Origin: a virus
Taxonomy: Duplodnaviria; Heunggongvirae; Uroviricota; Caudoviricetes
Strand: one strand, 5' to 3'
Length of the DNA: 41,326 nt
IMG/VR virus record: IMGVR_UViG_2548876945_000011
Location: 1 to 41,326 of that record
Both the position numbers and the translations under genes were made by a program. Shown in pieces: positions 1-16,304 of the stretch. Under the pieces are notes generated by a model. That model was not told the origin of the DNA. It did not search any database and saw nothing but the letters and a program-made list of their open reading frames with translations. Each line of letters begins with the position of its first letter. Within the stretch, counting starts at the first letter, position 1.

Positions 1-342
1 ATGATGAAAAAAAGTATTCTGGCGTTTCTGTTACTCACCAGTTCTGCAGCGGCGCTGGCTGCACCGCAGGTGATTACCGTCAGTCGTTTTGAAGTGGGTA
101 AAGACAAATGGGCGTTTAATCGCGAAGAGGTGATGCTGACTTGCCGACCGGGTAATGCTTTGTATGTTATTAATCCGAGTACCCTCGTGCAGTATCCTTT
201 AAACGATATCGCACAAAAGGAAGTTGCCAGTGGGAAGACCAATGCCCAACCCATTTCGGTGATTCAGATTGATGATCCTAACAATCCCGGCGAAAAAATG
301 AGTCTGGCACCGTTTATAGAACGAGCTGAAAAACTCTGTTAA
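1..342 (+). CDS. yebY: YebY, periplasmic DUF2511-family protein (host gene)
   Basis: Complete 113-aa ORF with N-terminal signal peptide ([22 protein letters not shown]); matches my memory of E. coli YebY; K-12 neighbour of pphA. Confidence 0.75.
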
Positions 343-371: not shown

Positions 372-415
372 AAAAAAACCGCCTCAGTTCTTTCACCAGA
401 ACGGGCGGTTTTTAA
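372..415. terminator. Bidirectional intrinsic terminator downstream of yebY
   Basis: GC stem CCGCC...GGCGG flanked by an A-run upstream and a T-run downstream, so hairpin plus U-tract on both strands. Confidence 0.5.
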
Positions 416-500
416 CATTTCAGCTGATGACCACCACGCTTTTTATTGACCATTTTGCACGCAAACTGGAAAACCTGGCGTCGTCATCTATTCTTAAAGG

Positions 501-603
501 GCAAGGCAACTAAGCCTGCATTAATGCCAACTTTTAGCGCACGGCTCTCTCCCAAGAGCCATTTCCCTGGACCGAATACAGGAATCGTATTCGGTCTTTT
601 TTT
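501..603 (+). ncRNA. sdsR: SdsR/RyeB-like sRNA; its 3' terminator coincides with the prophage attL core
   Basis: About 103 nt between a sigmaS-like -10 (TCTATTCTT near 487-497) and a perfect hairpin CCGAATAC-AGGAATC-GTATTCGG followed by T7; the yebY-pphA intergenic region is the known sdsR/ryeA locus. Identity from memory, not searched. Confidence 0.5.
578..597. repeat. attL core (ACAGGAATCGTATTCGGTCT)
   Basis: 20-bp sequence repeated with one mismatch at 40234-40253; adjacent to int; weaker flanking similarity extends to about 574-603. Confidence 0.6.
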
Positions 604-645
604 AATTGTATTTAAAATCAATTAGTTGCAAACGTCTCCCCGAAA

Positions 646-665
646 TTACTCGAAATTTACTCGAA
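646..665. repeat. Tandem TTACTCGAA repeats, candidate integrase arm-type binding sites
   Basis: Two direct copies at 646-654 and 657-665 between the attL core and the int stop; a related AACTCGAAA lies at 40109-40117 near attR. Confidence 0.3.
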
Positions 666-734
666 TTTCTGTATTCCGGTCTTTTTTGGTTATATCACAA
701 CCAAAACACATTTAACAATCCATTTACGTTAAAA

Positions 735-1811
735 TCAGAGCAGTAAGTACGTTTTTTCTCTCTCATCAAGATACATTTTTGTTGTCTTCTCCGATGTGTG
801 GCCAAGTAGACGTTGAGCAAATTCTTCCCCACATGTTTCTTTGTACAATCGTCCAGCCAGACTTCTGATCTCGTGAAAAGTTGGTGGGTTTTCACTGAAC
901 TGGATACCTGTTAATTTTCTGGCTGCGACAAATTTCTTTGTCAGGCCGTCCGGGTGAATGCTGCCGTCAGGGCTGTTTTTTCTAATCCCGGCACTGATTA
1001 GATAATCCCCCCTACTTACCATGCGGCACTGTTCAACTACTGTACCAAGTCGTAAACCAGCGACAGGAAGGCTGAGTGACAGGGGGATAGCAATCATCAT
1101 TCCTGTCTTAATTTGCCTGATGTGGAGACGATCATCATAAATCTCACTGAACCGCATATTTGTTATGTCTTCGCGACGTTGTCCTGTTACAAGGGCTAAG
1201 TCCATAGCTAATGGGAACCATGTCGGAAGTTGATCTGCTGCCTCCCTGATGCAGTTGTATGTCTTTAGTTTCAGCCGTTCTCTTGTAACTACTATTTTCG
1301 GTGCTCTTGTTGGCGTTACTGGATTTTGAGATATACGTCCTTCAACAATGGCCTCGCGGAACATATCAGATAACACAGAACGCATTGATCCTGCCATCGT
1401 GTTTTTCCCTCCTTCAATCCACAAATCAAGAAACTCGGCAATATGGCGAGTGGTTATTTCTGTCAGTAAAACTCCTCCTAATTTTTCTTTTATTGTCTCC
1501 AGTTGATTTACCCGAATTTTATAAGTATTTCTGGACACTTTTCTCCTTATAAGAATCGTTTTGTAACGTTCAATCCAGTCTGCCATAGTAAATGAGTCGA
1601 ACCCTTTTAGTTTTTCAATTAAGGCAGCAGGAGAGTAGTTTTTGTATATATAATGATTTGCTTCAATTGCCTGCGCTACTGCATCTCTTCTTGAAATTTT
1701 ACCTAGTGTAAATTCTTCTTTCGTCAGAGGGTTGCGCCAGTAATATGCTTTGTCCCTCCTTCGATATGTTAAGTTTTTAGGCAAATTGGGATCGTATTTT
1801 TTCCGCTGCAT
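735..1811 (-). CDS. int: Tyrosine integrase, lambda Int family
   Basis: 358-aa ORF; N-terminal arm-binding-like region and overall similarity in pattern to lambda Int; next to the att core and overlapped by the xis ORF. Confidence 0.9.
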
Positions 1812-2064
1812 GTTTTAACTTCTCCAGTAACGGACTGTCTCTCCCTTGTCGCCCATTAGGCTGATGGTGTGTTATATCGGTATCAACCTTATTTGGGTTG
1901 ATATAGAAAGCTTCCGGAACCACCCTGTAACTTCTCCCGTGTAGTTCAGGTGCAGGATAAATGTTTCCATTCCTTGCCCATCGTCTCAGCGTTGATATTG
2001 ATGGTGGGTTATCCGGATATCTGAGTTTTCCCCACGTTTTGAGTGTCACAAGATTCATTGCCAT
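1777..2064 (-). CDS. xis: Excisionase-like protein
   Basis: Small basic ORF overlapping the int start by about 35 nt, the typical xis-int arrangement; AAGAGG RBS; the true start may be the second ATG at 2058. Confidence 0.6.
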   Translation of the reverse strand: MAMNLVTLKTWGKLRYPDNPPSISTLRRWARNGNIYPAPELHGRSYRVVPEAFYINPNKVDTDITHHQPNGRQGRDSPLLEKLKHAAEKIRSQFA

Positions 2065-2164
2065 ACCTCTTACGATATGACCGCCAGTAAATATACAGAA
2101 TACTGGCGGGTGTGGTTGATTTTTAATAATCAGCTATGAAGTTCTAATTTGTATATAATGCAAC

Positions 2165-2353
2165 TCACGAGGACAGAAGTTTCTCGCAATTAAAATTTAT
2201 CAGCTTTACTTTCTGCTCTCTGGACACGCCTGCTTCTTTTTTCCCTGAGAGCATTTTTTCGCATTCTGATTTCGTTAATTTAGATTTTGAATATCTTGTC
2301 CAGTTAGTAGGAGTGCCACCTTCTTTTTCAATAGTGGCAGTTATTTTATACAT
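2165..2353 (-). CDS. Small hypothetical early protein (YdaC-like position)
   Basis: 62-aa ORF starting at an internal ATG preceded by GGAGGTG; AT-rich; lies between xis and ralR as ydaC does in Rac. Confidence 0.4.
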   Translation of the reverse strand: MYKITATIEKEGGTPTNWTRYSKSKLTKSECEKMLSGKKEAGVSREQKVKLINFNCEKLLSS

Positions 2354-2540
2354 GAACACCTCCATTATTATTTCCAGTAGTTCGTTTATTCCATCTTTCG
2401 AGTGCTTCTTTTTCACTTCCACCATAGCCAGTTCGGGATTCGCATCCGTTGCATTTTGCCCGGTAATATCCTGAAATTGCTTTCACCGTAACAGATGGAC
2501 AACCACAAAACGGACATGGTTTAACATCGTCATATCTCAT
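2346..2540 (-). CDS. ralR: Lar/RalR-family restriction-alleviation protein (type I toxin candidate)
   Basis: 64-aa product from MRYDDVKPCPFCG... with CPFCG/CNGC zinc-ribbon motifs characteristic of the Lar family; Rac-like position upstream of recT. Confidence 0.6.
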   Translation of the reverse strand: MRYDDVKPCPFCGCPSVTVKAISGYYRAKCNGCESRTGYGGSEKEALERWNKRTTGNNNGGVHV

Positions 2541-2596
2541 AATTTTTGTCATAAAAACTGTCTCACGTTGGCGGTGCATTACACCGCCAGGCTGAA

Positions 2597-3406
2597 TTAT
2601 TCTTCTGAATTATCGATTACACTGTATTCCCCGGTTAATACAGAGGAGTCTGCCGGATCGATTGTCAGTGGTTCCTTTTCATCCATTGATACTGCACGCT
2701 GGATTTCAATTGAGACAGGCAGGTATTTAAACAGGCGACGAATAGCCGTTTTTTTTGCCATTTCTTCCCAGTGAGTTACCCATGGCCCGTTATTACCAGC
2801 CTTACTCTGGCTGCGCACCAGTTCAATCTGTTTGCGCGTCATAACTTCAAACTGAGTCCCTCCGTCTTTCAGTCTTGCGACAGCATAGACGTGGGTCACT
2901 GGTGCATCTTCGTTTTCTCCCGGGCGGTGTATTAACTTTTCATCAAGGCCAAATTCAAAACTAAACTCGTCACCTTCACGGACAACACGGGCTGACAGGC
3001 TGGCGATTTGACCAGAACGGCGAGCCAGATCAATCATGCCGCGATAACCAATGATTAGCTGAACGTTCTTTTTACCGCTCTTTTCGTTTTTATTACCAAA
3101 AGGCAGTAAATATGCGTGGCCGAGGGCGCTACCTGGCTCAAGGCCGAGCTGTGAACACTGAACGATCGCACTGACAAAACTCATGGTGTCACAGTTTCCT
3201 AGCGCCGGAACCTTACGAATTTCTGTGGTGGCGATACGTATCATTCGTTCAGCCGTCATATGGCGTGGGAGAGCTGCTGCCAGTTGCTCTTTCATTGATG
3301 GCTGATTAATAAAGCTGATCACGTCGTTATTTTTTACTGCTGCTGGTGCACGGTTTCCCTGGGTTTTTTGCAGATCGGCTTTTGCGATAGGTGGTTGCTT
3401 AGTCAT
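2597..3406 (-). CDS. recT: RecT single-strand annealing recombinase
   Basis: 269-aa product from [13 protein letters not shown]...; matches my memory of Rac RecT; AAGGAG RBS 7 nt upstream. Confidence 0.9.
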
Positions 3407-6050
3407 TTGCATACTCCTTAGCCCAGCGGGGCAGTGATAACGTTTTAATAGCTGGCCATTCATCGGTATTCAGGCAGTCAGCCAGGGTCCTCAGATTGCG
3501 GTGATATTCCTGCTGGCCTGCCAGTTTTGCTTCTTCGCCCATCATGAAAATCTCAACCGGGTAACGTCCGCATTCAACAGTTGTGCTGGCAACCAGAAAA
3601 ACGAAAGTTGGCAGCACGCCAAACTGTGCTTCATAACCGTCACTGTAGAATGCATCCTGAACGTGATAGCGGTAGTCGTAATAAGCCGTTTTGAATCGTT
3701 GAATATCCGCTGTGGTTTTCACGTCCATGATCCAGTGAAATTCAGGAATAATTTTGTCCGGACGGCACCGACACAAAATTCCTGTTTCCGGATCTTCCCA
3801 GTAAATTGATGATTCAGCGTGTCCGGCGCTTTCAACAAGCCATTGCCCCAGCGGCAAAGCCATAACGCTTTGATACATGAGTTCAATTTTCCGGCCTTCT
3901 TCCGCAGTGATAACCGTTTTTCCTGTGCTTGCGCATTCCATCAGAAACGCTTTCTCTTCTTCTTTTCCGGCGTTTGTACGGCGGTTAAATTCAGGTGCTA
4001 CGATAAAGCGGTTACTGAATTCTTCCGGTTCAAGTACCCGGCAGTGGAAAGCGGTTCCTAAATCGAGCGTTTTTGTCTTTGTAGTGTCCACGGGGGCATT
4101 TTTACGCCACAAATACAGTGCCGGAGTATCAGCAATGTCATCGAGCTGAGACTTACTGACACCGGGACCCGCGTGGTAATTCTCATTCGAAATTCCGTAA
4201 TAAATACCTGGCTCTATGTCTTCTACGATTACGGGATCTGCGACTTCGCCAGTTTCATCACTGCAATCGCGATGCGGATCGCTGCCAGCATTCTCATTGT
4301 GCGGATGTTCAGCGCCTTCCATTTCCTCCGGATCTTTTTCCTTAGCTTCAACCTGATTCTCTTCACCGAATGTTTCCTGGTATGTTGCGTCGCCCATCAC
4401 CGCACCACAGTCAGGGCAGTTATCCCCGCCAGTCTGACCGCAGGCATTGCAGACTATTTCCGGTTCCTGTTGCACTACTGGCTCAGGTTGTTTCGCATCC
4501 GGGCTGATTTTTTCCGTTTCTGGCTGGTTCTGGTACACAGAATCGCGAGTCTGGATCCCCTTAACCCATTTCGGATCGTTCGGGTCGCTAATCCCTTCAA
4601 CAAATTCTCCGCGAGAGGCAGCCAGTAATTTGTCTGCATCGACAGGATTTTTGGGCGGAATGTTTTTCCGGGCTTCATGGAGTTCTGCCCGCAGTTTCTG
4701 ATATTTCGCATCAACAGAATTTACCTGTGACTGAGCATCCAGCGACTGCGTGTCCTGATGATGTTCAGTTGCATCCGGTTCCACTGTTTCAGCCGTTGCC
4801 TGTTCATCTGCCATTGCGCAAGATGGTTGCAGTTTTTCTTCATCATCCTGTTTTTCTTCTTCTGTTACACGCTGCGGCATCGGGGCAGAGGAACGACCGC
4901 AGGCAATATCCACGATTTCTGGATCAGGGTTGGCATGATCAGTTTCAGTCAGTACTTTGTTCAGATATTCAGTGACGTGTGCGGGGATAACCTCGATCCC
5001 AATTGGTGCTTCTTTTACGGACGCAACCACGATGGCGCGGGAATAATCCAGCCCACCAGGCATGGTGATGAATTTGTCGCGGAAAACAGAAAAGGGTGGT
5101 TTATTTTCAGCGATAATTTCCTCGACACGTTTAGCGTGTGCCGGATGAAGGTTATAAATGTCCACGTCCATTGAACGAGCCAGTACGCCAGTGGCTACGT
5201 CGCGCGCCAGTGACGTCAGATCGTGAACGAAACCTTCGCCGCGATCGGTGAGGTTCCCGCCGCCAGCATTAGCGCCGGAAGCCGTGCGCGTGATGCGTGA
5301 AACACGATTTCCTTTTCGCCATTCTTTTGTCAGAAGACCGCGATCAATGTGTTCGGTATCCAGCCAGGCTGAAATGAAATTCTTAAATTCATAGGGCTGA
5401 TGTTTTTTCGTGATAGAGAACACTGCCTTAATTGCATCAGTCAGGCGGAGCAGGGCGGCATTATCCAGAGTTGTCGGTTCTGCCATGCTGCGTATGGCCA
5501 ACAGCAGATTCTGGACATAGCTGTTTTCCTGATCCATCTCAAGAGCAGTAATGTGTTTGCGTTGTTCACGGGTGGCATGATGCAGGTATTTCCGATCCCC
5601 GGCAGCATACGTAAAAATGTGCAGAAGACGCTGTGTGAACCGCAAAGTGGCTACAGAGACTTCGCAATCCTGGCAATCCTCGTGGGCGTCTGCCTGCGCG
5701 TTTTCTTCCTGGCCTCCCGCCAGTTCTTTGGTTTCTTGAGCATTATCCTGGTGGTGAACGTCGTCTGGCGCTGCTCCCGGTTTTAGTTCCCAGGTCATGG
5801 AGTCTTTGCTGAGTTGATAGCGTTCACTCCAGGTAAAATCGATCTCACCTTCAGGGGGCAGGTCATTAACGACAGGAAAATTCGTGGCAACAGCTTTAAA
5901 ATAGCTGCTCAGTTTTTTACCTGACTTAACGATCAGGTAGTCCAGAGTGGCACAGGTCGATTCAAAATCGTCGCTTGCCCACAGGACGACGTCAGGTTCA
6001 CCGGATGATTTTTTCGCTTTCCGTAACAGGAAGAGTGGTTTTGTGCTCAT
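3399..6050 (-). CDS. recE: RecE exonuclease VIII
   Basis: 883-aa ORF immediately upstream of and overlapping recT; N-terminus [14 protein letters not shown]... and length agree with Rac RecE. Confidence 0.9.
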
Positions 6051-6073
6051 TGTTTTTTAACCTCAACTCATAT

Positions 6074-6370
6074 TCAGATTGCATAAAAGAAACGAACTGA
6101 TGATGCGATGCCTGAGAGTTCTTTCAGTCGTTGATAACTGATGCCGTATTTCTTGTCAGCCTCTTCAATACGAGCTGCGAGTAATGCTACTTCTTTAATG
6201 GCACACACATAACAATCAAATGCTCCCAGAACGTAACCGCCATCAATAATTACCGTAACGTTTTCTTTTTGGGAAATCTGAATAAAACCATGTAATGTAT
6301 TCCCACATTTGAATTCGGCGAGAGAATCGTTAATGACATTAAGTTCAATTTCACATTCAATAATGCTCAT
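6074..6370 (-). CDS. racC: RacC-like protein
   Basis: 98-aa product from MSIIECEIELNVIN... with an AAGGAAA RBS; sits upstream of recE as in Rac. Confidence 0.55.
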   Translation of the reverse strand: MSIIECEIELNVINDSLAEFKCGNTLHGFIQISQKENVTVIIDGGYVLGAFDCYVCAIKEVALLAARIEEADKKYGISYQRLKELSGIASSVRFFYAI

Positions 6371-6444
6371 TTCTGTTTCCTTTTTTAAGATTGATAGAAT
6401 CCCTGCCATTGCTGGCATAAATTCAGTTTCGGATAGTCAGTTAA

Positions 6445-6615
6445 TTAAAGTTCGTGTGCCATCTGGTCTTTTTCGGCACAAGATTCACTGCAATATTTTC
6501 TCGGTTCGTCTTTTGATAAAGTCCCGTGCATGAAGTGGAGCATTCTTTCAATAGCTTTGCTTTCTTCAACGTCTTTTTTGCAAAGGTGGTAAGCACATTT
6601 TATTTTCTTGACCAT
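6445..6615 (-). CDS. ydaE: YdaE-like small zinc-binding protein (below the ORF-track length cutoff)
   Basis: Hand translation gives the 56-aa [56 protein letters not shown]; its ATG overlaps the kilR stop by 1 nt. Confidence 0.6.
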   Translation of the reverse strand: MVKKIKCAYHLCKKDVEESKAIERMLHFMHGTLSKDEPRKYCSESCAEKDQMAHEL

Positions 6616-6836
6616 CACCATGACTCCGCCTTTACAGGTAAACCATCACGACCGAGGAAGACTTTAATCATGCGGTCAGTAATGCATGTTTTTGTGGTCA
6701 GGTTACGAATATAAAGTTTTCGCTTTTTAATATTGTTTGCCGAGGCAATATATGTCCGGCCTTCATGAAGAACATAATCGCCAGGAGTCACACACTGACG
6801 TGGTATTTCATCAGTTCCGAAGTGATGTGCAATCAT
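6615..6836 (-). CDS. kilR: KilR cell-division inhibitor
   Basis: 73-aa product from [21 protein letters not shown]...; matches my memory of Rac KilR; GGAG RBS. Confidence 0.75.
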
Positions 6837-7030
6837 AATTATCTCCATTTTTACAAATGAACTTTGTTGATGCGGTGTCTGGTGCCTCCAGGTGACGTTA
6901 ACCAGTTAACAATTAACGCCGGATACAGAGAACCCACCCATAAGAACCAATACGGAAGTCAACTGGCCTTTTTAACTGTGCCGCGTGCGCTGAGCCGCAT
7001 TCACCGCATCACAAAATTCACTTTAAAAAG

Positions 7031-7070
7031 GGCGGGTATCACAAGGGAAAACAAAAAACGGATACCCGCC
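7031..7070 (-). terminator. Leftward intrinsic terminator upstream of kilR (tL-like)
   Basis: 10-bp inverted repeat GGCGGGTATC/GATACCCGCC; on the minus strand it is followed by CTTTTT. Confidence 0.4.
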
Positions 7071-7295
7071 AAAAGGTAATCAACATGGGTTGTTGCAGCG
7101 GGGTTGTCACTCAGGCGTATGGTCAACCTGACAACCCGGTGCTCCTGTGGGGATTACATGAACCCCCGCCATACTTACCACCGCGCCATTTCGCGGATTG
7201 CCACAACCGGAAGCGCACGGTCGAAGAAATTTAACGACAAGCCTTCTAAGGGAAAAACACCTCCTCCGTGCGCCTTCGTGTTGTGTGCCTGTCTT

Positions 7296-7323
7296 TTTAC
7301 CACTTCAGGCTCGGTGGTATACT
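7296..7323 (+). promoter_or_regulatory. Candidate sigma70 promoter for the zinc-ribbon gene
   Basis: TTTACC, 16-bp spacer, then extended -10 TGgTATACT about 33 nt upstream of the ATG at 7356. Confidence 0.35.
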
Positions 7324-7355
7324 GGAGTTCTCACACAACCAGTAAGGAATTTAGT

Positions 7356-7634
7356 ATGGTAATTACTTCACTCTGCCCTGTTTGTTTGGCTACATCTTCT
7401 GTGCAGACTTTAGTTGAAGGACAGCGCGAATTTTTGAAAATTTATCATTGTCCAAATCATGGTAGTTTTGCCGTTCTTCCTGATCTGGACGTGAAATTGC
7501 AAGCAATGAGGTGTTCGTCGGGTTATAAGATTGAGCATTCGGAAGAGGCTATCAGGCTCGATGCACGCTTACGTGAAAGCATACGCCCAGTAGATGGTCC
7601 TCAGTCGAAAATTCCAGTATTCCGCTCTGTCTAG
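7356..7634 (+). CDS. Small zinc-ribbon-like protein, function unknown
   Basis: 92-aa ORF with CPVC...CPNH motif and AAGGA RBS; occupies the sieB-equivalent position opposite the early-left operon. Confidence 0.5.
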   Translation: MVITSLCPVCLATSSVQTLVEGQREFLKIYHCPNHGSFAVLPDLDVKLQAMRCSSGYKIEHSEEAIRLDARLRESIRPVDGPQSKIPVFRSV

Positions 7635-7646
7635 TTTTCCCCGACT

Positions 7647-7662
7647 GGCACCCTGTGGTGCC
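7647..7662. terminator. GC stem-loop between convergent genes (possible terminator)
   Basis: GGCACC-CTGT-GGTGCC hairpin in the 30-bp gap between the 7634 and 7665 stop codons; no clear U-tract. Confidence 0.3.
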
Positions 7663-7664
7663 GG

Positions 7665-7964
7665 TTACATCTCCTCGATCATCGCATTTGCTACGGCCCG
7701 CAGATCTTCCAGTGCACTTTCAACTTTTGGATCTTTTGCGGTCTCACTGACTTTTTTCATGGCATCAGCCATTCTTTTAATCAGATCATTTGGAGTCTCT
7801 TTCGGGTTAGCAGACACCCTGCTGGCCAGCTCCAGTGCAAGACGTGCATCTTTTGGTGTAATGCCTTTATCTTTTGCCATCTCTGCTGCCAGCTCAGAAA
7901 GCTCGGATGCAAGAGTGAGAACGCTTCTTCCCGTTTTTGACGGATATATATCGTGTGTGAACAT
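7665..7964 (-). CDS. Hypothetical helical protein, first gene of the leftward early operon
   Basis: 99-aa ORF with strong GAGAGGAAAAC RBS; sits where lambda N sits but has no arginine-rich motif. Confidence 0.6.
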   Translation of the reverse strand: MFTHDIYPSKTGRSVLTLASELSELAAEMAKDKGITPKDARLALELASRVSANPKETPNDLIKRMADAMKKVSETAKDPKVESALEDLRAVANAMIEEM

Positions 7965-8133
7965 TGTTTTCCTCTCCCCTTAACGCCGGGGTAGCGGAAC
8001 AAAAACCTGCTGCATAGTTAAAGTTGAACCCTGCCGTCATGTTCTTACGCCTCGGGCTGGCTACTTAACCCCTGACCACTGCCTGGTAACTCGAAGTATT
8101 GCCCTGCATTCTGTGGGGCGGGGTGGGTTGGTA

Positions 8134-8178
8134 TTTTTAGTTTAATAAACATTAAACTTAAGTCAAGTAAAAACTAAA
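8134..8178 (-). promoter_or_regulatory. PL-like leftward promoter with flanking operator half-sites
   Basis: On the minus strand TTGACT, 16-bp spacer, TAAACT; flanked by ACTAAAC and an inverted TTTTAGT; mirrors the PR-like element at 9136-9200. Confidence 0.4.
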
Positions 8179-8249
8179 CCATGGAGCGAACAAACACAAC
8201 GCTTTTGATAAAGTCGTTGCGGTTGTTATGTTTCTATTGGTAGTGAAAG

Positions 8250-8528
8250 TTAGGGAAACTGGCGTCTTGCGTGGATCACGTTTACTACTTCAACGCTTGA
8301 TGTTGTTACGCGGTATAGAATTATATAGTTAGGGTGGGCTACAATCTCACGCAAGCCAGGTACTCTGTCGCTTGGTGGGTATAAATACGGATGTTCGGAT
8401 AACGGCAGCACACAACCCCTTAATCGCTGCCATAAGCGTTCAGCCGCATCTATGTCGAAACGAGCAATATAGCTAGTTATATCATCTAGGTCGGTATCTG
8501 CGCTTTCAAGCCATAACACGGGTAACAT
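8250..8528 (-). CDS. parE: ParE/RelE-superfamily toxin
   Basis: 92-aa product from MLPVLWLESADTDLDDITSYIA... with the ParE-like C-terminal pattern; starts 1 nt after the antitoxin stop. Confidence 0.75.
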   Translation of the reverse strand: MLPVLWLESADTDLDDITSYIARFDIDAAERLWQRLRGCVLPLSEHPYLYPPSDRVPGLREIVAHPNYIILYRVTTSSVEVVNVIHARRQFP

Positions 8529-8529
8529 T

Positions 8530-8721
8530 TTACTGCTTGCTCCGTTCCTTGCGCATTTTAGCAAAGCGTTCTGCCATTCTGCGCTCAACTTCGTCATGGG
8601 GAATTGCTGGGCGCGGATCTGCAAGGCTCGTTGCTACTTTCGCACGCAGCCATTCGTTGTAACTGTTTTCTTGTTCAATGGTTTCAAATTCAGAAACCAT
8701 TGGTGAAAGGGCTCTATTCAT
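8530..8721 (-). CDS. paaA: Antitoxin of the ParE module (PaaA-like)
   Basis: 63-aa product MNRALSPMVSEFETIEQENSYNEWLRAK... with GGAGG RBS, immediately upstream of the toxin; resembles PaaA2 as I remember it. Confidence 0.6.
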   Translation of the reverse strand: MNRALSPMVSEFETIEQENSYNEWLRAKVATSLADPRPAIPHDEVERRMAERFAKMRKERSKQ

Positions 8722-8741
8722 GTTTCCTCCGGTTTTATAAC

Positions 8742-9137
8742 TCAGGCGCGGCGGCATTTTTGCGCCGCAATCCATCTCGCTATGAGATCTTCCATTGATT
8801 CTTTTTTCTGCTTTAACTCGCTGATTATCTGGCGTTGCTCATCCTCAGGGAAGGCTGAAAAAATCTGCAATAATTCCAGTTGATTAGACGTTAACCCTGC
8901 ATGTGGTGGAGAAGCTTCCGGTTGTTCTGCGTATTCCGCATCCAGATACCCTTCCGGCATCCCGTATGTTTGCTCTATTCTTCTGGCAGCCTTTTCTCCA
9001 AACGAGGCCCTCCCACTCATTAGTTGAGATAGGTAGCTCTTCTCTTTGGGTGGCAGAGTTTTATCTTTAAACCACTCCTTGAGACGTAAACGGCGAATTT
9101 CTTTTTTTTGCATGTGGTAATTATCTTTAGTAATCAC
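8742..9137 (-). CDS. paaR: HTH XRE-family repressor (CI analogue, PaaR/RacR-like) lacking a peptidase domain
   Basis: 123-131 aa with HTH (KSYLSQLMSGRASFGEKAARRIEQ); divergent from ydaS; first gene of the repressor-antitoxin-toxin operon. The first in-frame codon is GTG at 9137; the first ATG is at 9113. Confidence 0.7.
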   Translation of the reverse strand: MITKDNYHMQKKEIRRLRLKEWFKDKTLPPKEKSYLSQLMSGRASFGEKAARRIEQTYGMPEGYLDAEYAEQPEASPPHAGLTSNQLELLQIFSAFPEDEQRQIISELKQKKESMEDLIARWIAAQKCRRA

Positions 9138-9200
9138 TAAACAAGCAAATACTTGACTTAATGGTTTATTAAATACTAAACTCGCAAAAAAACACTAAAC
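9136..9200. promoter_or_regulatory. Divergent promoter/operator region (PR-like) with three ACTAAAC repeats
   Basis: ACTAAAC at 9136-9142, 9175-9181 and 9194-9200; TTGACT at 9153-9158 with 18-bp spacer to TAAACT at 9177-9182, upstream of ydaS. Confidence 0.45.
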
Positions 9201-9210
9201 CGAGGAAGGT

Positions 9211-9513
9211 ATGACATTAAAAGAGTTTATTAAATCATTGAGGGTTGGTGATGCTAAGAAATTCGCGGCCAGACTTGGTGTATCGCCATCTTACTTATCG
9301 CAAATGGCGTCTGGACGAGCAGCTATATCTCCAACCCGCGCCCTTATGATCGAATCTGCGACGGAAGGCCAAGTAAGTAGGGCGGAGCTACGACCCCATG
9401 ATTGGGAGCTTATTTGGCCTGAGTATGCGAGCGGCATTCGTTTGGGGCAAACACATGTAGTTCATGCTGAAGGTGATTGTAGTGCATGCTTATCTGATGG
9501 AGTTGATTCATGA
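9211..9513 (+). CDS. ydaS: YdaS-like Cro-type HTH regulator
   Basis: 100-aa ORF (MTLKEFIKSLRVGDAKKFAARLGVSPSYLSQ...) transcribed divergently from the repressor; matches my memory of Rac YdaS. Confidence 0.75.
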   Translation: MTLKEFIKSLRVGDAKKFAARLGVSPSYLSQMASGRAAISPTRALMIESATEGQVSRAELRPHDWELIWPEYASGIRLGQTHVVHAEGDCSACLSDGVDS

Positions 9514-9935
9514 AAATCAAGCATGAACACATCCGCATGGCGATGAATGCCTGGGCGCATCCGGACGGTGAAAAAGTTCCGGCAGCTGAAATAACCAGGG
9601 CTTATTTTGAACTGGGTATGACGTTCCCAGAACTGTATGACGACAGCCATCCGGAAGCCCTGGCTCGTAATACCCAGAAAATTTTCCGCTGGGTGGAGAA
9701 AGACACCCCTGATGCGGTTAAAAAAATTCAGGCGCTGTTACCGGCGATCGAAAAGGCAATGCCACCTCTGCTGGTGGCCCGAATGCGCAGCCACAGTTCA
9801 GCCTATTTTCGGGAGCTGGTGGAGACGCGGGAACGACTGGTGAGAGACGCTGATGATTTTGTCGCAGTGGCGATCGCTGGTTTCAATCAGATGAATCGTG
9901 GTGGCCCGGCGGGAAATGCCGTGGTCGTTCATTAA
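9510..9935 (+). CDS. ydaT: YdaT-like protein (CII-like regulator/toxin family)
   Basis: 141-aa ORF overlapping the ydaS stop by 4 nt (MKIKHEHIRMAMNAWAHPDGEK...). Confidence 0.75.
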   Translation: MKIKHEHIRMAMNAWAHPDGEKVPAAEITRAYFELGMTFPELYDDSHPEALARNTQKIFRWVEKDTPDAVKKIQALLPAIEKAMPPLLVARMRSHSSAYFRELVETRERLVRDADDFVAVAIAGFNQMNRGGPAGNAVVVH

Positions 9936-9956
9936 GAATGGTATAGGAGAAAATCG

Positions 9957-10250
9957 ATGACATTTACAAATGAAGGTCGAATTGTTTTTGATTTTGAGTA
10001 CGAAACTCCATTGCAGAGATTGATTATGTTAAGAATTTTCTGCTCCGGGAGTGGCGATGGTGGGCGTGAAAAGCGTTTTGAAGATCAGGAATTCCGACGT
10101 TTTTGTTGTTGTACGTTTGATGAGTTTGAGCAGGCTATCGCCAAACTTATCGAGATGGGGGTGATTCATAAAATAAGTTATGGATATCAATACGGAAAGC
10201 CATCAAGTGGTTACATCATCAAAGATCCAGATGAAATTATTCAGTTATGA
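9957..10250 (+). CDS. Hypothetical protein
   Basis: 97-aa ORF with GGAGA RBS, overlapping the start of the replication initiator gene. Confidence 0.5.
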   Translation: MTFTNEGRIVFDFEYETPLQRLIMLRIFCSGSGDGGREKRFEDQEFRRFCCCTFDEFEQAIAKLIEMGVIHKISYGYQYGKPSSGYIIKDPDEIIQL

Positions 10251-11212
10251 GTCTTCTTTTTGCTGAACGCCCGCTGGTTATTAACACGCAGCTGGCGATG
10301 AAAATTGGTCTGAACGAAGCCATCGTGTTGCAGCAGCTGCATTACTGGTTGAGAGATACCGGTTCCGGCATGGAATGTGATGGTGTTCGCTGGATTTATA
10401 ACACAACAGAACAATGGCTGGAACAGTTCCCGTTCTGGTCAGAGTCAACGTTAAAACGCGCATTTGCAAGTCTGAAAGCGCTGGGGCTTTTGCGTTGTGA
10501 AAAGCTCAACAAATCAAAGCGTGACATGACTAATTTTTACACGATTAATTACGAGAGCGAGCTTTTAGATGGTGGCAAAGTGAGCGAATCCATCAGGTCA
10601 AAATGCGCCGCTCCATCAGGTCAAAATGACACGATGGAAGAGGCCAAAATGGCACGCTCCATTGGCTCAAAACGACCCAATGTCATCGGGTCAAAATGGC
10701 CTGATGATCTTACAGAGAATACAACAGAGATTACTACAGAGAATAAAAACACTTCTCGTCCGGAAGCTTTGCAACCGGACATGCAGACGGCTGAACAGGA
10801 TTTTTTAACCCGACACCCTGACGCGGTTGTGTTCAGTGCGAAAAAACGCCAGTGGGGCAACCAGGAGGATTTAGCGTGTGCGCAGTGGATCTGGGGACGA
10901 ATCGTGAGTCTTTACGAGCAGGCTGCCAGCGATGATGGCGAAATCATGCGACCGAAAGAACCCAACTGGACTGCATGGGCCAATGATGTGCGCACAATGC
11001 GGATGCTGGATGGCAGAACTCACAGACAAATTTGCGAAATGTTTGGTCGGGTACAGCGGGATCCATTCTGGGTAAAAAACGTCATGAGCCCGTCAAAGCT
11101 TCGCGAAAAATGGGATGAGCTGGTTATTCGTCTGGGGCGTTCACCTGTACAGCGTTGCGTGAATCACATTTCTGAACCGGACACCGAAATTCCGCCGGGC
11201 TTCAGGGGGTAA
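10247..11212 (+). CDS. Replication initiator / replisome organiser (lambda O-like)
   Basis: 321-aa ORF immediately upstream of the DnaC-like gene; contains iterons inside its coding sequence, as lambda O contains ori. Confidence 0.65.
   Translation: MSLLFAERPLVINTQLAMKIGLNEAIVLQQLHYWLRDTGSGMECDGVRWIYNTTEQWLEQFPFWSESTLKRAFASLKALGLLRCEKLNKSKRDMTNFYTINYESELLDGGKVSESIRSKCAAPSGQNDTMEEAKMARSIGSKRPNVIGSKWPDDLTENTTEITTENKNTSRPEALQPDMQTAEQDFLTRHPDAVVFSAKKRQWGNQEDLACAQWIWGRIVSLYEQAASDDGEIMRPKEPNWTAWANDVRTMRMLDGRTHRQICEMFGRVQRDPFWVKNVMSPSKLREKWDELVIRLGRSPVQRCVNHISEPDTEIPPGFRG
10592..10698. repeat. Candidate replication origin: five iterons (consensus ATCrGGTCAAAATG)
   Basis: Direct repeats starting near 10592, 10615, 10638, 10661 and 10685 at about 23-bp spacing, followed by three ACAGAGAwT repeats at 10711-10745. 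Confidence 0.6.
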
Positions 11213-11218
11213 CGAAGC

Positions 11219-11719
11219 ATGAAAAATATTGCGACAGGCGGTGTTCTTGAACGCATCCGTAAGCTGGCTCCGCAGCATGTAACCGCGCCATACCGAACAG
11301 TGGACGAGTGGCGCGAGTGGCAACTTGCTGAAGGCCAGAAACGTAGCGAGGAGATCAACCGCCTGAATCGCCAGTTGCGGGTGGAAAAAATTCTGAATCG
11401 CTCAGGCATCCAGCCGTTGCACCGCAAGTGCTCGTTTGCGAATTACCAGGTGCAGAACGAAGGGCAGCGATACGCGTTAAGCCAGGCGAAATCCATCGCC
11501 GATGAACTGATGACCGGGTGTACAAATTTTGCGTTCAGCGGAAAACCTGGTACCGGGAAAAATCACTTAGCGGCAGCTATCGGGAATCGCCTGCTGAAAG
11601 ACGGTCAGACAGTGATTGTGGTTACCGTGGCTGATGTTATGAGCGCCCTGCACGCCAGCTATGACGACGGGCAGTCAGGCACGCAAAAGTTGCAGGACTG
11701 GATGATGCCGATACCGTAA
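11219..11719 (+). CDS. DnaC-like helicase loader, apparently C-terminally truncated
   Basis: Walker A GKPGTGKNHLAAAIG present, but the ORF stops at 166 aa, before the expected Walker B region, against about 245 aa for DnaC-family proteins. Confidence 0.6.
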   Translation: MKNIATGGVLERIRKLAPQHVTAPYRTVDEWREWQLAEGQKRSEEINRLNRQLRVEKILNRSGIQPLHRKCSFANYQVQNEGQRYALSQAKSIADELMTGCTNFAFSGKPGTGKNHLAAAIGNRLLKDGQTVIVVTVADVMSALHASYDDGQSGTQKLQDWMMPIP

Positions 11720-11876
11720 CGCTTAAGGAAGTGACAGAAGCATTGTTGCATTGTGCGGAACAGATTCGCGCGCCTGAATAATTAAATTTAGTGTTGTAAA
11801 TAAAATTTAATCCTTAACCGGAGGGATTTCTGCACCCTCAGAACATCAGGAGGCCGCCCGAAAGGGCGGTAATGAA

Positions 11877-12059
11877 ATGCGAAAGTTCAGAATAATTATT
11901 GAAACGGGAATAGCTGGTGGAGATTTTGAGGATGTATTCGAAGTGGATGATGGTGCGACACCAGATGAAATACAGGACGAAGCAAAAGAAATTTTCTTTA
12001 ACTACTGCAATTACTCATATCACGAAATAAAAGATGAGGAGGAAGAACAAAATGGCTGA
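11877..12059 (+). CDS. Small highly acidic protein
   Basis: 60 aa with 18 D/E against 5 K/R; AGGAGG lies 23 nt upstream, separated from the ATG by a CCGCCC-GAAA-GGGCGG hairpin. Confidence 0.45.
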   Translation: MRKFRIIIETGIAGGDFEDVFEVDDGATPDEIQDEAKEIFFNYCNYSYHEIKDEEEEQNG

Positions 12060-12228
12060 TTTTGGTTCAACTAAATACAACGTCAGTTTTGAAGAATGGC
12101 ATGAACTGTTAATGGACTATGCAGAGTTACGCGGTGGAAGTGCCGCTGATGCTGAAGCATGGCGTGATGACTACGAAGCAGGAAAAACTCCGGTCGAAGC
12201 ATATTGTGATGAGTGGGGCGATGAATGA
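12052..12228 (+). CDS. Small acidic protein
   Basis: 58 aa from MADFGSTKYNV... with 16 D/E against 4 K/R; GGAGGAAG RBS; start overlaps the previous gene's end. Confidence 0.45.
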   Translation: MADFGSTKYNVSFEEWHELLMDYAELRGGSAADAEAWRDDYEAGKTPVEAYCDEWGDE

Positions 12229-12439
12229 GCGAGATTAATTATCAGGAAGGACATGATTTCGTTATGCTTGATGGAGGGCGCTATATATTTTCCTCGCACC
12301 TGTGATAAAAATGATGAGCCGAGACTGTATTTACGGGACGCTGAGAGAATACCATAGAAAAGCTTATCTAACTTAAGTAGAATTGCTGCGGGTGCTTGAG
12401 GCTATCTGCCTCAGGCATGAACACCAAAGGCAGATAGAG

Positions 12440-12510
12440 AAAAGCCCCAGTTAACATTACGCGTCCTGCAAGACGCTTAACATTAATCTGAGGCTCAATC
12501 TATGAACGGC
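12440..12510 (-). ncRNA. sok: Sok-like antisense RNA (antitoxin of the hok locus)
   Basis: Minus-strand promoter TTGCCT (12545-12540), 17-bp spacer, TAACCT (12522-12517); the transcript would be complementary to the mok start region. Ends are approximate. Confidence 0.4.
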
Positions 12511-12558
12511 AAATCTAGGTTAGCCTCTTACGTGCCGAAAGGCAAGGAGAAGCAGGCT

Positions 12559-12714
12559 ATGAAGCAGCAAAAGGCGATGTTAATCGCCCTGATCGTCATC
12601 TGTTTAACCGTCATAGTGACGGCACTGGTAACGAGGAAAGACCTCTGCGAGGTACGAATCCGAACCGGCCAGACGGAGGTCGCTGTTTTCGTAGACTACG
12701 AATCTGAGAAGTAA
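12559..12714 (+). CDS. hok: Hok/Gef-family type I membrane toxin
   Basis: 51-aa MKQQKAMLIALIVICLTVIVTALVTRKDLCEVRIRTGQTEVAVF...; closely matches the HokD/RelF and HokC sequences I remember; in-frame mok-like leader from 12502. Confidence 0.8.
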   Translation: MKQQKAMLIALIVICLTVIVTALVTRKDLCEVRIRTGQTEVAVFVDYESEK

Positions 12715-12784
12715 GAGTGACCAGGCGGGAGAGTAATCTCCCGCCACCTCTGATGTGTCGGCATCCTCAACGCACCCGCGCTTA

Positions 12785-12806
12785 ACCCGCTTCGGCGGGT
12801 TTTTTG
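12785..12806 (+). terminator. Intrinsic terminator of the hok transcript
   Basis: ACCCGC-TTCG-GCGGGT hairpin followed by TTTTTTGTTTT; preceded by a 9-bp perfect hairpin at 12724-12745 (fbi-like 3' element). Confidence 0.6.
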
Positions 12807-12880
12807 TTTTACGTATTCTGGTTTACAATCCACAGGCCAGCCTGAACAACTGGCACCTGCTGCGCCAGCGGAGAACTACG

Positions 12881-13480
12881 ATGGCGCATATACAACTGGT
12901 CAAACAAACCTCTTCCGGATTACTTCTCCCGGCGACGCCGGAGAGTTGCGATTTTTTGCATCAAATCAAAATAGGTGAGTGGATACACGCAGACTTTAAG
13001 CGTGTGCGTAACTACGCATTCCACAAGCGTTTTTTCAAACTCCTGCAACTGGGATTCGATTACTGGACTCCGGTCGGTGGGGCGATCACGCCTCGCGAAC
13101 GAAAACTGGTATCAGGCTTCGTTGATTACCTGTGCGAATCAGTAGGTCGGGAACACACTCCAGCCCTGAGTGATGCCGCAGAGCAATACCTTAATACAGT
13201 TGCGACATGCAGAACCCGGGATACGGCATTGCTAAAGTCGTTTGACGCTTTCCGCGAGTGGGTAACCATTCAGGCCGGATTTTACACCGAGCATATTTAT
13301 CCTGATGGTAGTCGTGGGCGCAGGGCAAAATCTATCGCATTTGCGAACATGGACGAAACCGAGTTTCAGCAGGTTTATAAATCTGTACTGAATGTGCTGT
13401 GGAACTGGATCCTGTTCCGTAAATTTTCCTCTCCGGAGGAAGTCGAAAATGTGGCCGTGCAGCTGCTGGAGTTTGCGTAA
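12881..13480 (+). CDS. Conserved lambdoid nin-region protein (possibly DUF1367-like)
   Basis: 199-aa product from MAHIQLVKQTSSG... with GGAGA RBS; the upstream part of the tracked ORF overlaps the hok terminator and is unlikely to be coding. Confidence 0.55.
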   Translation: MAHIQLVKQTSSGLLLPATPESCDFLHQIKIGEWIHADFKRVRNYAFHKRFFKLLQLGFDYWTPVGGAITPRERKLVSGFVDYLCESVGREHTPALSDAAEQYLNTVATCRTRDTALLKSFDAFREWVTIQAGFYTEHIYPDGSRGRRAKSIAFANMDETEFQQVYKSVLNVLWNWILFRKFSSPEEVENVAVQLLEFA

Positions 13481-13770
13481 TGGTGGATTTACGTAAAGCG
13501 GCGCGGGGCCAGATGTGCCAGGTCAGAATCCCTGGCTACTGCAATCACAATCCCGAAACGTCTGTGCTGGCGCATTACCGACTGGCGGGAACGTGCGGAA
13601 CGGCGATAAAGCCACACGATATGCAGGCAGCGATTGCCTGTAGCTCGTGCCACGATTTAATCGACGGGCGGGTAAAAACCAGCGATTACACCAAAGAAGA
13701 ATTACGCCTGATGCACGCAGAAGGTGTTTTTCGCACACAAGAAATCTGGAGAAAGGAAGGTTATTTATGA
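13480..13770 (+). CDS. ybcO: YbcO-like putative nuclease (DUF1364)
   Basis: 96-aa ORF with conserved Cys pattern (CQVRIPGYCN...CSSCHD); resembles DLP12 YbcO as I remember it. Confidence 0.65.
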   Translation: MVDLRKAARGQMCQVRIPGYCNHNPETSVLAHYRLAGTCGTAIKPHDMQAAIACSSCHDLIDGRVKTSDYTKEELRLMHAEGVFRTQEIWRKEGYL

Positions 13771-14321
13771 TTTACCCAACGAATACAGGAAAAAGCGGAG
13801 AACACCTTCGTCTCACCACGCTGGAAAGTGTCTGGATTCAGGGAAAACTGCGTATGTGGGGGCGCTGGTCGTATATTGGTGGCGGTAAGACGGGGAATAT
13901 GTTCAACCAGTTGTTGACCTCTAAAAAGCTGACAAAAACGGAAATTAACGAGGCGCTCCGCAGGATGAAAAAAGCAGGTCTGGACAAACCTGAACTTGAG
14001 GCTTTTTTGCGGGGTATGATTAACGGCAAGCAAAAGAGCTGGCTGGCACATTGTACCGATTCAGAGGCATTAATAATCGACAGGGTTATTGGCGAAGTAC
14101 TGGCAGAACACCCAGGATTGATTTGTATCCTCCAGCAACGATATGAAGGGAGTGGGATGACTAAGCGAAAAATGGCTGAATTGCTGAATGATTCACACCC
14201 TGAGTGGTGTTACGCCACGTGCCGTAATCGCATAGATGCGTGGTTGAAAATGGCAGAGTTTATGCTCTATCTGCCGATGCGTGATGCATTCTCTTCCGGG
14301 GATTTAAAAACTGTCTGTTGA
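13767..14321 (+). CDS. Putative late antiterminator (Q-like)
   Basis: 184-aa ORF coupled to ybcO by an ATGA overlap; a promoter-plus-terminator pair follows directly; assignment by position and weak motif resemblance only. Confidence 0.4.
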   Translation: MIYPTNTGKSGEHLRLTTLESVWIQGKLRMWGRWSYIGGGKTGNMFNQLLTSKKLTKTEINEALRRMKKAGLDKPELEAFLRGMINGKQKSWLAHCTDSEALIIDRVIGEVLAEHPGLICILQQRYEGSGMTKRKMAELLNDSHPEWCYATCRNRIDAWLKMAEFMLYLPMRDAFSSGDLKTVC

Positions 14322-14347
14322 CTCAATCTGTTATCCGGGGCTATATT
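14318..14347 (+). promoter_or_regulatory. Candidate late promoter (PR'-like)
   Basis: TTGACT overlapping the Q-like stop codon, 18-bp spacer, TATATT. Confidence 0.35.
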
Positions 14348-14407
14348 TCCGAAGCGCCAGCAAAATCTGGCGTCGGGATTGGAACCCCGGATATCGAAAC
14401 GGTGCAT

Positions 14408-14427
14408 ACCGCGCTGGCGGTTTTTTT
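14408..14427 (+). terminator. Candidate tR'-like terminator
   Basis: ACCGC-GCTG-GCGGT hairpin followed by T7, about 60 nt downstream of the candidate late promoter. Confidence 0.4.
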
Positions 14428-14590
14428 ATGCGCTAAGCACAGTCACATTCGCGATTTATGGCGGGCTGTGTGGGGGCACCGAAAGGTGCACCGGATGTTT
14501 CGACCGGTAGTTCCAACCCTGCACAGTTCGCCACCCGATGATTGGAACCTGAAGGTGGTGAGGTAAAAATTATCGAAACGCGAGGTCGTT

Positions 14591-15154
14591 ATGACTGTTC
14601 AAGTTGCTGTCAAAAACCTTTCCCCTGTCACTTATAACCAGATTCCTGTAATCACAACTGAGTTACTCGCCCGCCTTTACGGAACAGAAGCAATCCGTAT
14701 ACAGCAGAATCACCATAAAAATAAATCTCGATTTATTGAGGGAAAACACTTCTTTAAAGCTGTTGGTGATGAGCTCAAAAATTTGCGACTAGTTTTAAAC
14801 GAGTCGCAAAATGAGGTGAAAATTTCTCCAAAAACCCGCTCCCTCATCCTCTGGACAGAACGCGGCGCAGCCCGCCACGCAAAAATGCTCGAAACCGATC
14901 AGGCGTGGGATGTGTTCGAAAGACTGGAAGACTGCTATTTCAGACAAAAGGATCCGTCAGCGCCAGTTTCATGCCAGAAAAGTTACGACACGCGAGTTCT
15001 CTGTTATCAGCGAGGCGGTGTCACTGTTTCCACAATTCAGTTGCGGGATGATGATATTGTTATTTCCCTTGAGTCATGGCTGGAACTGGCGAGAGCCAAT
15101 GGTTGGTTTGTTGTTCGCAGAGATAAACTGGTGGAAAGGCTGATGCAGCTTTAA
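14591..15154 (+). CDS. ORF6N-domain protein (antirepressor-like N-terminal domain)
   Basis: 187 aa; motifs NKSRFIEGKHFF and LILWTERGAARHAKMLETDQAWDVFERLE match my memory of the ORF6N family. Confidence 0.65.
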   Translation: MTVQVAVKNLSPVTYNQIPVITTELLARLYGTEAIRIQQNHHKNKSRFIEGKHFFKAVGDELKNLRLVLNESQNEVKISPKTRSLILWTERGAARHAKMLETDQAWDVFERLEDCYFRQKDPSAPVSCQKSYDTRVLCYQRGGVTVSTIQLRDDDIVISLESWLELARANGWFVVRRDKLVERLMQL

Positions 15155-15244
15155 AAAAGTTCTTGCAATTTTAGCCATAAACTGCTTCAATCCCAGTACG
15201 CTTCGCAAAGCTGTATCGCGAGGCGAACCAAGCGCATGAACTTT

Positions 15245-15283
15245 ACCAGAACCCGCCATTGAGCGGGTTTTGTTGTTTCTGGT
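15245..15283 (+). terminator. Intrinsic terminator after the ORF6N gene
   Basis: CCCGC-CATTGA-GCGGG hairpin with outer ACCAGAA/TTCTGGT pairing, followed by TTTTGTTGTTT. Confidence 0.55.
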
Positions 15284-15387
15284 ACTGGCGAACCTGATGT
15301 TTCATTTCTGAAGCGCGATTCCTGGCGGAATACCTAGAATCGAGACATTCTGGTAAAATTGTGTTCAGTACAGGATGTGGAGGTGAG

Positions 15388-15957: not shown

Positions 15958-16087
15958 CTGAGTCGGCAGAATCTCCAACAAAAACACGACGTGTAGCAAA
16001 GTCTGCAGTACTTTGTGTTGGAGTTGGTTTTGGTGCCACGGGTTGCTGAGGTTTATTTTCACCTTGTGGCTTGTTTTTTTCAGACAT
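15926..16087 (-). CDS. Small proline-rich hypothetical protein, convergent with the membrane protein gene
   Basis: 53 aa (MSEKNKPQGENKPQQPVAPKPTPTQ...) with AGAGGA RBS 5 nt upstream; 3' ends of the two genes overlap by about 30 nt. Confidence 0.4.
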   Translation of the reverse strand: MSEKNKPQGENKPQQPVAPKPTPTQSTADFATRRVFVGDSADSVIEHIKKQPR

Positions 16088-16181
16088 AAAAATCCTCTTT
16101 GTTTGAATTGTTACTTTTGGCGATTTAACGATATCAAACACGAGTATATACCGCCAGAAGCTTAATCTGGCACTCCATCTG

Positions 16182-16206
16182 GCCCCGGCATGTCCCGGGG
16201 CTTTTT
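16182..16206 (+). terminator. Intrinsic terminator upstream of the holin gene
   Basis: 7-bp GC stem GCCCCGG/CCGGGGC with 6-nt loop, followed by TTTTT. Confidence 0.6.
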
Positions 16207-16304
16207 CGTTGTTAGGCTCCGGAAACATCCTCGACTTCTTGTTAGCAAGACTGAGAGCCTGAATCTTACACTTAGCACCATCCGAACTCTCGGAGGTGAG
16301 GCTT

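Follow-up and report, generated by a model that had tools for sequence, protein, structure and literature searches.

A temperate prophage at the terminator of the small RNA gene sdsR in Escherichia coli: probable integration by lambda-type recombination

The yebY-pphA locus and its attachment sites

We analysed positions 1 to 41,326 of the IMG/VR virus record IMGVR_UViG_2548876945_000011, hereafter called the window, in which a prophage of ~39.6 kb (598..40233) lies at the small RNA (sRNA) gene sdsR, between the bacterial genes yebY and pphA. The left bacterial flank was formed by yebY (1..342, plus strand), with whose start codon the window begins. It was recognized by Pfam DUF2511 (E 2e-45) and is annotated as yebY in matching Escherichia coli genomes. 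The right flank carried the metallophosphatase gene pphA (40394..41050, plus strand; Pfam Metallophos and annotation), and the window's right edge lies beyond it. Direct reading revealed a bidirectional hairpin, A7-CCGCC...GGGCGG-T5 (372..413, both strands), which serves as terminator for yebY on the plus strand and for RyeA on the minus strand.

A first-pass annotation, made from the letters of the window alone, had described an sRNA-sized unit that follows a sigma-S-like -10 element and ends in a perfect terminator hairpin, and had placed a prophage in the terminator of this SdsR/RyeB-like sRNA. Covariance-model searches agreed with this description. Rfam RF00111 (SdsR_RyeB) matched at 504-603 on the plus strand, with 118.1 bits against a gathering threshold of 38 and with all model positions covered (1-100/100). 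On the opposite strand of the same yebY-pphA intergenic region, RF00101 (SraC_RyeA) matched at 607-463, with 179.1 bits against a threshold of 37. The sdsR promoter (487..497, plus strand) was of the sigma-S type, with T at -14 (487), C at -13 (488), the -10 element TATTCT (489-494), which includes C at -8 (493), and an A/T-rich discriminator with TAA at 495-497; its sequence was the same as in E. coli K-12. The sigma-S promoter features reported for sdsR are C at -13, T or G at -14, C at -8 and an A/T-rich discriminator (PMC3333887). The position of the -10 element, together with C488 and T487, therefore makes G501 the +1 and gives an sdsR unit of ~102 nt (501..603, plus strand). Bases 501-577 of this unit are bacterial and 589-603 are phage DNA, with the junction inside 578-588. 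The whole SdsR fold had a predicted energy of -34.8 kcal/mol (z -4.7). The terminator, GGACCGAATAC-AGGAATC-GTATTCGGTCT followed by T7 (569-604, -15.8 kcal/mol), was the sole terminator-like site in a scan of 300-2200.

The start of ryeA was mapped with the help of Choi et al. 2019 (PMC6610125), whose -10 mutation primer (ACCATA to CTCGAG), primers for rapid amplification of cDNA ends and construct coordinates were located in the window. The -10 element TATGGT (40311 to 40306) and RyeA nt 1-44 (40297 to 40254) were found on the minus strand at 40254..40311. The 3' body, RyeA/SraC nt 45 to ~270, lay on the same strand at 372..597, as also seen in the RF00101 match. With +1 at 40297, these nucleotides and the body from 597 to 372 add up to 270 nt, and the published 3' ends at +261 to +270 (PMC6610125) fall in the bidirectional hairpin at 372..413. 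A contiguous ryeA gene, with sigma-70 promoter, +1, body and terminator, was not present in the window: the promoter and nt 1-44 were 39.6 kb away from the body, on the attR side, and ryeA is therefore split.

The junctions were delimited by a four-way comparison of attB, attP, attL and attR. The repeat at 578-597 (ACAGGAATCGTATTCGGTCT), already pointed out in the first-pass annotation as a 20-bp core, occurred again at 40234-40253 with one mismatch (A589 versus G40245), and the similarity stretched to 573-609 versus 40229-40265, with 32 of 37 positions identical (86%). In K-12, attB is the uninterrupted sequence CGAATACAGGAATCGTGTTCGGTCTCTTTTTATCTGT. A contiguous attP, CGAAAACAGGAATCGTATTCGGTCTTTTTTTAATTGT, was found in the GenBank phage record PP818812.1, which has an integrase 98% identical to the one in the window, and whose attP is flanked by the equivalents of window positions 40060-40233 on one side and 598-742 on the other. 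The attL region (573-609) consisted of the left part of attB and the right part of attP, and the attR region (40229-40265) of the left part of attP and the right part of attB; they were exact reciprocal products. Alignment with the uninterrupted yebY-pphA region, which had been proposed as a check, gave continuity with K-12 across the junction, base for base. The differences between attB and attP at 577 (T/A) and 589 (G/A) confine the crossover to the 11 bp of 578-588 (ACAGGAATCGT), within the attL core (578..597). In the attR core (40234..40253), the sequence from 40245 rightwards is that of K-12 attB. The attP of PP818812.1 contains ACAGGAATCGTATTCGGTCTTTTTTT, the 3' segment of its target gene sdsR, which bears out the earlier suggestion that the 3' end of the sRNA comes from the prophage.

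The single mismatch between the two core copies had been taken as degeneration of the attR copy. This was not the case: attR was exactly the K-12 attB sequence (GTGTTCGGTCTCTTTTTATCTGT), and the divergent copy was that of the phage attP (GTATTCGGTCTTTTTTTAATTGT). At the polymorphic base, A was found in 15 of 15 attL loci and G in 11 of 11 E. coli-type attR loci of IMG/VR. Together, the K-12 attB, the phage attP and the IMG/VR loci rule out decay of attR as the source of the mismatch, which is a natural heterology between attP and attB: attR keeps the bacterial G, which forms a G.U wobble, and attL has the phage A. A further suspicion concerned strain WEC, in which a match running a few bases past the junction (to 609) resembled a phage 'scar' in an empty site. 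It turned out to be a single-nucleotide polymorphism in a normal attB.

The predicted hairpin energies were -15.8 kcal/mol for attL and for attB, -4.7 kcal/mol for attR and -4.0 kcal/mol for attP. No hairpin forms at attR because the 5' stem arm remained at attL. We also considered that the phage copy might strengthen the terminator stem and rejected it, since the predicted energy was the same with G.U or A-U (-15.8 kcal/mol) and the U tract alone differed. Because the stem arms form an inverted repeat on either side of the 7-nt loop, we infer that they may be core-type integrase sites and that the loop AGGAATC (580-586) is probably the overlap region. The same logic of dyad and overlap has been described for attachment sites at tRNA anticodon loops (Williams 2002, as cited in PMC3603311).

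Integrase and the arms of the phage attachment site

Close to attL lies the gene of a lambda-family tyrosine integrase of 358 aa (int, 735..1811, minus strand), with the Pfam domains Arm-DNA-bind_1, Phage_int_M and Phage_integrase. The arm-type DNA-binding domain (PF09003, residues 3-61) scored 28.1 bits against a cut-off of 22. Its sequence identity was 38% with lambda Int and 41% with HK022 Int. Its residues R212, K235, H313, R316, H338 and Y347 aligned with lambda R212, K235, H308, R311, H333 and Y342, the catalytic residues of lambda Int. The start of int is overlapped by xis (1777..2064, minus strand; Pfam Exc, E 6.5e-14), annotated as an excisionase gene in homologous prophages. The adjacent Xis and an integrase with arm-binding, core-binding and catalytic domains are shared with lambda and HK022.

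In the P' arm, a match to the integration host factor (IHF) consensus, AATCAATTAGTTG, was located at 616..628 (plus strand), 33 bp from the overlap centre. It was one of three matches to the pattern WATCAANNNNTTR in the whole window, and almost identical to the H' site of lambda (TATCAATTTGTTGCAACGAAC), at the same distance from the core. An IHF site was present at the equivalent position in two further phage groups (representatives L035 and L012). Three tandem putative arm-type Int sites, P'1 to P'3 (CCCGAAATTA, CTCGAAATTT and CTCGAATTTC), lay at 639..669 on the plus strand. The repeats began at +43/44, +53/54 and +64/65 after the core in the representatives of all 17 phage groups compared (+46/56/67 in L020), and a strict repeat pattern recovered all three in 15 of these 17 groups.

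The P arm (40090..40137, plus strand) contained the putative arm-type sites CCCGAAATTT (40090-40099) and CTCGAAAAAA (40111-40120), followed by the IHF-like TAACTAATTGAAT (40125-40137). Equivalent repeats near -145 to -142, -132 and -122 were found in most of the P arms of 23 other phages, as was an IHF-like TTGAT motif; in a few of these 23 P arms, the pattern used found no repeat. The positions of the arm-type repeats suggest that they are Int binding sites in the P and P' arms. Two P-arm sites, here near -145 and -124, and three tandem P' sites are also the arrangement of lambda and HK022, and the distances match the geometry of lambda, with H' at +33 from the overlap centre, P'1 at +55/56 and P1 at about -148. 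The sequences differ, however: the arm consensus here was YCCGAAAWTT, whereas the lambda arm-type sites are AGGTCACTAT, CAGTCAAAAT and AAATCATTAT, and the core sequence is also different. The attB lies in an sRNA terminator and not, as that of lambda, between gal and bio.

Directly after the third P' site, a core-like element (GTATTCCGGTCTTTTTT, 671..687, plus strand) was found, which nearly repeats 588-603 but has one nucleotide inserted. It is an addition relative to lambda, in which we found no counterpart. The best match to the core was at +73 to +77 after the core in 17 of 17 groups. The match was close in four of the 17 groups (1-2 mismatches, with at most 6 of 1000 shuffles as good); in most groups, including the one of this phage, it was not above shuffles when scored without gaps. 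The element also resembles the 3' stem arm and U tract of sdsR (GTATTCGGTCTTTTTTT). A back-up terminator behind sdsR, formed by 671-687 and P'3, was considered and discarded, because folding of 16 groups gave no conserved hairpin with a U tract.

Integration into the sdsR terminator and its predicted effects

From these data, we consider it very likely that a temperate phage of ~39.6 kb was integrated by lambda-type site-specific recombination into the Rho-independent terminator of sdsR, between yebY and pphA. The phage attP brings its own copy of the last ~26 nt of sdsR, from the loop through the 3' stem arm to the U tract. Strand exchange would take place inside ACAGGAATCGT, most probably with the AGGAATC loop as overlap and the stem arms as inverted core-type Int sites. 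At attL, a full sdsR is thus rebuilt with two base changes, one converting the G.U pair to A-U and the other changing the tail from UCUCUUUUU to UCUUUUUUU, by which a U tract of C plus five U has become one of seven U.

A 19/20 repeat within 41 kb is by itself only weakly improbable, and several other two-copy repeats in the window were at chance level. On these grounds alone, the repeat could be a chance match, or the block could be an island of non-phage origin or a dead remnant, brought in by something other than site-specific recombination at sdsR. We regard both as extremely improbable. The repeat is not due to chance because the sequence continues base for base with K-12 across the junction and with the attP of a free phage; these exact junctions refute the chance and island explanations. 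In addition, int and xis lie directly at attL, the same junction occurs in 228 genomes, and the early, lysis, head, tail and tail-fibre genes of the block make up a complete set. Its early half was 93% identical to the best-matching induced E. coli phage genomes over 47%. Its late half was 97% identical to phage vB_EcoM-606R2 over 61%, and ~81% identical to Salmonella phage SEN34.

Some points do weigh against integration as set out here. The positions of overlap and cleavage are deduced from symmetry and two flanking polymorphisms. The attB of the host before insertion is represented by proxy, by K-12 and other E. coli, which attR matches exactly. Every expression consequence for this strain is extrapolated from experiments in K-12 and Salmonella.

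At the locus, integration rebuilds sdsR but not ryeA, leaving the sigma-70 promoter and the first 44 nt of ryeA at attR, and the body and terminator at attL. The displaced ryeA promoter faces the right end of the prophage, towards the Pin invertase gene (39339-39929). The pphA gene is now 39.6 kb from the sdsR promoter and would be cut off from it. According to the account of the K-12 locus in PMC6610125, most transcription of pphA is read-through that began at the sdsR promoter, transcription of ryeA interferes with this promoter, and RyeA and SdsR degrade each other. We thus predict that SdsR is kept or raised in the lysogen, that native RyeA is lost or reduced, and that read-through into pphA is lost. 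This agrees with the effects reported for PhiW104, a phage of Salmonella enterica DT104 that uses the last 23 bp of ryeB (Balbontin 2008, J Bacteriol 190:4075, as summarised in PMC7380047): by the same summary, the 5' part of ryeA is altered in PhiW104 lysogens, ryeA goes down and ryeB goes up.

The first-pass annotation had noticed a promoter-like element on the minus strand, TTTGCA-16-TACAAT (605..632), pointing back across the core. The hexamers and their spacing are real, with 9 of 12 matches, and they are kept in a phage record that is 97% identical. As a sigma-70 promoter of the P' arm (632 to 605), the element would replace the lost ryeA promoter and produce a 5'-shortened hybrid RyeA of ~227 nt, starting at ~598, which would keep SdsR in check. 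The modified 5' portion and lowered level of ryeA reported for PhiW104 lysogens (PMC7380047) do suggest some phage-side transcription across the core in that system. The comparison with other phages gave no support to the promoter role, and we think it unlikely: the scanned region held two promoter-like sites, against 4.0 +/- 1.9 in shuffles, so there was no enrichment; the element was present in this phage group only and missing at the same site from all 15 other phage groups using the site, so it is not conserved among the phages that integrate at sdsR; and it overlaps the perfect IHF consensus at the H' position of lambda, which alone accounts for the sequence. Positions 605-632 are most simply read as an IHF site.

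In lambda, int is poorly transcribed in the stable lysogen. A second possible source of antisense RNA is read-through of the int mRNA, given that neither the scan nor direct reading of 598-735 showed a terminator-like site for the minus strand from the int stop (735) to the core, although the simple scan overlooked the RyeA terminator itself and is of limited sensitivity. Since int and the ryeA body share the same orientation and are 137 bp apart, the int 3' untranslated region would become the RyeA body and end at the RyeA terminator. We give this source little weight, about as much as the P' promoter. A more far-reaching version is more doubtful still. In it, the int mRNA would gain the RyeA body as a 3' untranslated region with full complementarity to SdsR, an sRNA abundant in stationary phase, and SdsR would be a host-encoded, sigma-S-controlled counterpart of lambda sib, leading to RNase III cleavage of int transcripts and tying excision competence to the growth phase. 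Read-through of int on induction would in turn sponge SdsR, and the insertion would be a natural knockout of the ryeA promoter in ~4% of E. coli, with SdsR up and pphA silenced.

Distribution, related systems and further features

The left part of the window (1-604) was matched in all 5426 complete E. coli genomes searched, and the match continued into the integrase gene in 228 of them. The yebY-pphA spacer, that is attB, was intact in 5191 of the 5426 genomes, and an insertion at sdsR is present in about 4% of complete E. coli genomes. A contig search with the integrase gave two near-identical loci, one from E. coli and one from Shigella. In IMG/VR, at least 119 viral contigs proved to carry the core when scanned for its exact pattern. 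Among these, 67 were of the attL type, with the sdsR body on the left, and they fell into 18 right-flank groups. In 17 of the 18, an integrase 50-100% identical to the one studied here was present at the same place and in the same orientation. The bacterial flanks of the attL-type contigs were 70-100% identical to E. coli over yebY-sdsR, so that several enterobacterial genera are involved. In a Salmonella record, residues 102-358 (72% of the query) were matched by an integrase at 72.6% identity. Judging from these sequences, one integrase family is dedicated to the sdsR terminator across enterobacteria.

Three IMG/VR loci (L019, L039 and L054) were of the attR type, with an E. coli flank on the pphA side and P arms unlike that of this phage. 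The sdsR site of E. coli is thus shared by at least two or three additional types of phage. The phage record PP818812.1 is named 'Actinobacillus phage vB_Apl-pPE4' and labelled with Actinobacillus pleuropneumoniae as host, while its attP is built on the enterobacterial sdsR terminator. The host label looks doubtful, and the record may be an induced E. coli prophage. In E. coli 2017-03-3CC (NZ_AP027783.1, locus 3517-4900), the IS4-like element ISVsa5 was found inside sdsR, near the equivalent of window position 516. Here, sdsR/ryeA has been disrupted naturally, with no relation to the phage attachment site.

The use of the sdsR/ryeB terminator as a phage attachment site, and the accompanying change in ryeA, are known from Salmonella since 2008, and PMC3333887 describes the ryeA/ryeB locus as a repeated insertion hot spot. 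In its published summary, PhiW104 (Balbontin, Figueroa-Bossi, Casadesus and Bossi) is the same in kind as the phage described here: the target is approximately the last 23 bp of ryeB, a Rho-independent terminator internal to ryeA, and ryeB is kept while the 5' part of ryeA is replaced. The host here is E. coli, and the phage is a different one, with a Rac-like early region and myovirus late genes. Moreover, the G.U wobble of the E. coli attB and the C within its U tract are both removed by the phage copy. Our literature search found no explicit report of an E. coli prophage at yebY-pphA or sdsR. The present analysis refines the picture in that it maps the crossover, explains where the mismatch comes from, shows a lambda-like plan of attP across the integrase family and the split of ryeA, and re-reads the 'promoter' as an IHF site.

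Integration at the 3' ends of tRNA and tmRNA genes, in the form cited from Williams 2002 in PMC3603311, follows the same principle: the RNA gene stays intact since its 3' part is also present in attP, and a stem-loop with a 7-nt loop gives the dyad symmetry and the overlap. The target here differs in that it is the terminator of a regulatory sRNA, and in that the gene on the opposite strand, ryeA, is not regenerated. According to Wassarman 2001, as cited in PMC3603311, another sRNA gene of E. coli, ryeE (cyaR), is the attachment site of a P2-like phage at a different locus.

Although mainly confirmatory, these comparisons indicate that the sdsR terminator is a general enterobacterial attachment site for one lambda-type integrase family rather than a curiosity of Salmonella. 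The lysogens are natural mutants, with a ryeA that has lost its 5' end and a pphA that is no longer joined to the sdsR promoter, and they would be suited to testing the K-12 model of mutual degradation of SdsR and RyeA, transcriptional interference and pphA read-through. In the annotation of such strains, sdsR should be called across the attL junction and ryeA as split.

The prophage body combined a Rac-like early region with myovirus late genes and a Pin invertase, as inferred from the annotation of homologous prophages. The early region comprised int, xis, ralR/RalA, recT, recE, kilR, a repressor gene, ydaS/T-like regulators, replication genes and hok/sok. The RalA antitoxin RNA (Rfam, 219 bits) was located at 2169-2347 on the plus strand, antisense to the ralR/DUF1187 genes. 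RalA/ralR is a type I toxin-antitoxin pair of the Rac type, carried here by a prophage away from the Rac (ttcA) site. The sok antitoxin RNA (Rfam, 112 bits) was found at 12390-12564 on the plus strand, and homologous prophages have an annotated hokD at the corresponding position. At 10591-10706, a 23-nt repeat (CATCAGGTCAAAATG...) occurred four times, with spacings of 23, 46 and 24 nt. These copies look like the iteron array of a lambda-type origin inside an O-like gene.

Between the replication and late regions, isrK (Rfam, 72 bits) was directly followed by a C4 antisense RNA (73 bits), at 14354-14538 on the plus strand. The isrK and C4 RNAs are known from Gifsy-1 and from the anti-repressor control of P1/P7. 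The late region was a myovirus module that included Pin and a tail-fibre segment capable of inversion. The Pin-family serine invertase gene (39339-39929; Resolvase and HTH_7 domains) lay beside oppositely oriented tail-fibre and assembly open reading frames, and 38408-39929 is an invertible host-range segment at the right end of the prophage. The displaced ryeA promoter (40306-40311) runs antisense to pin.

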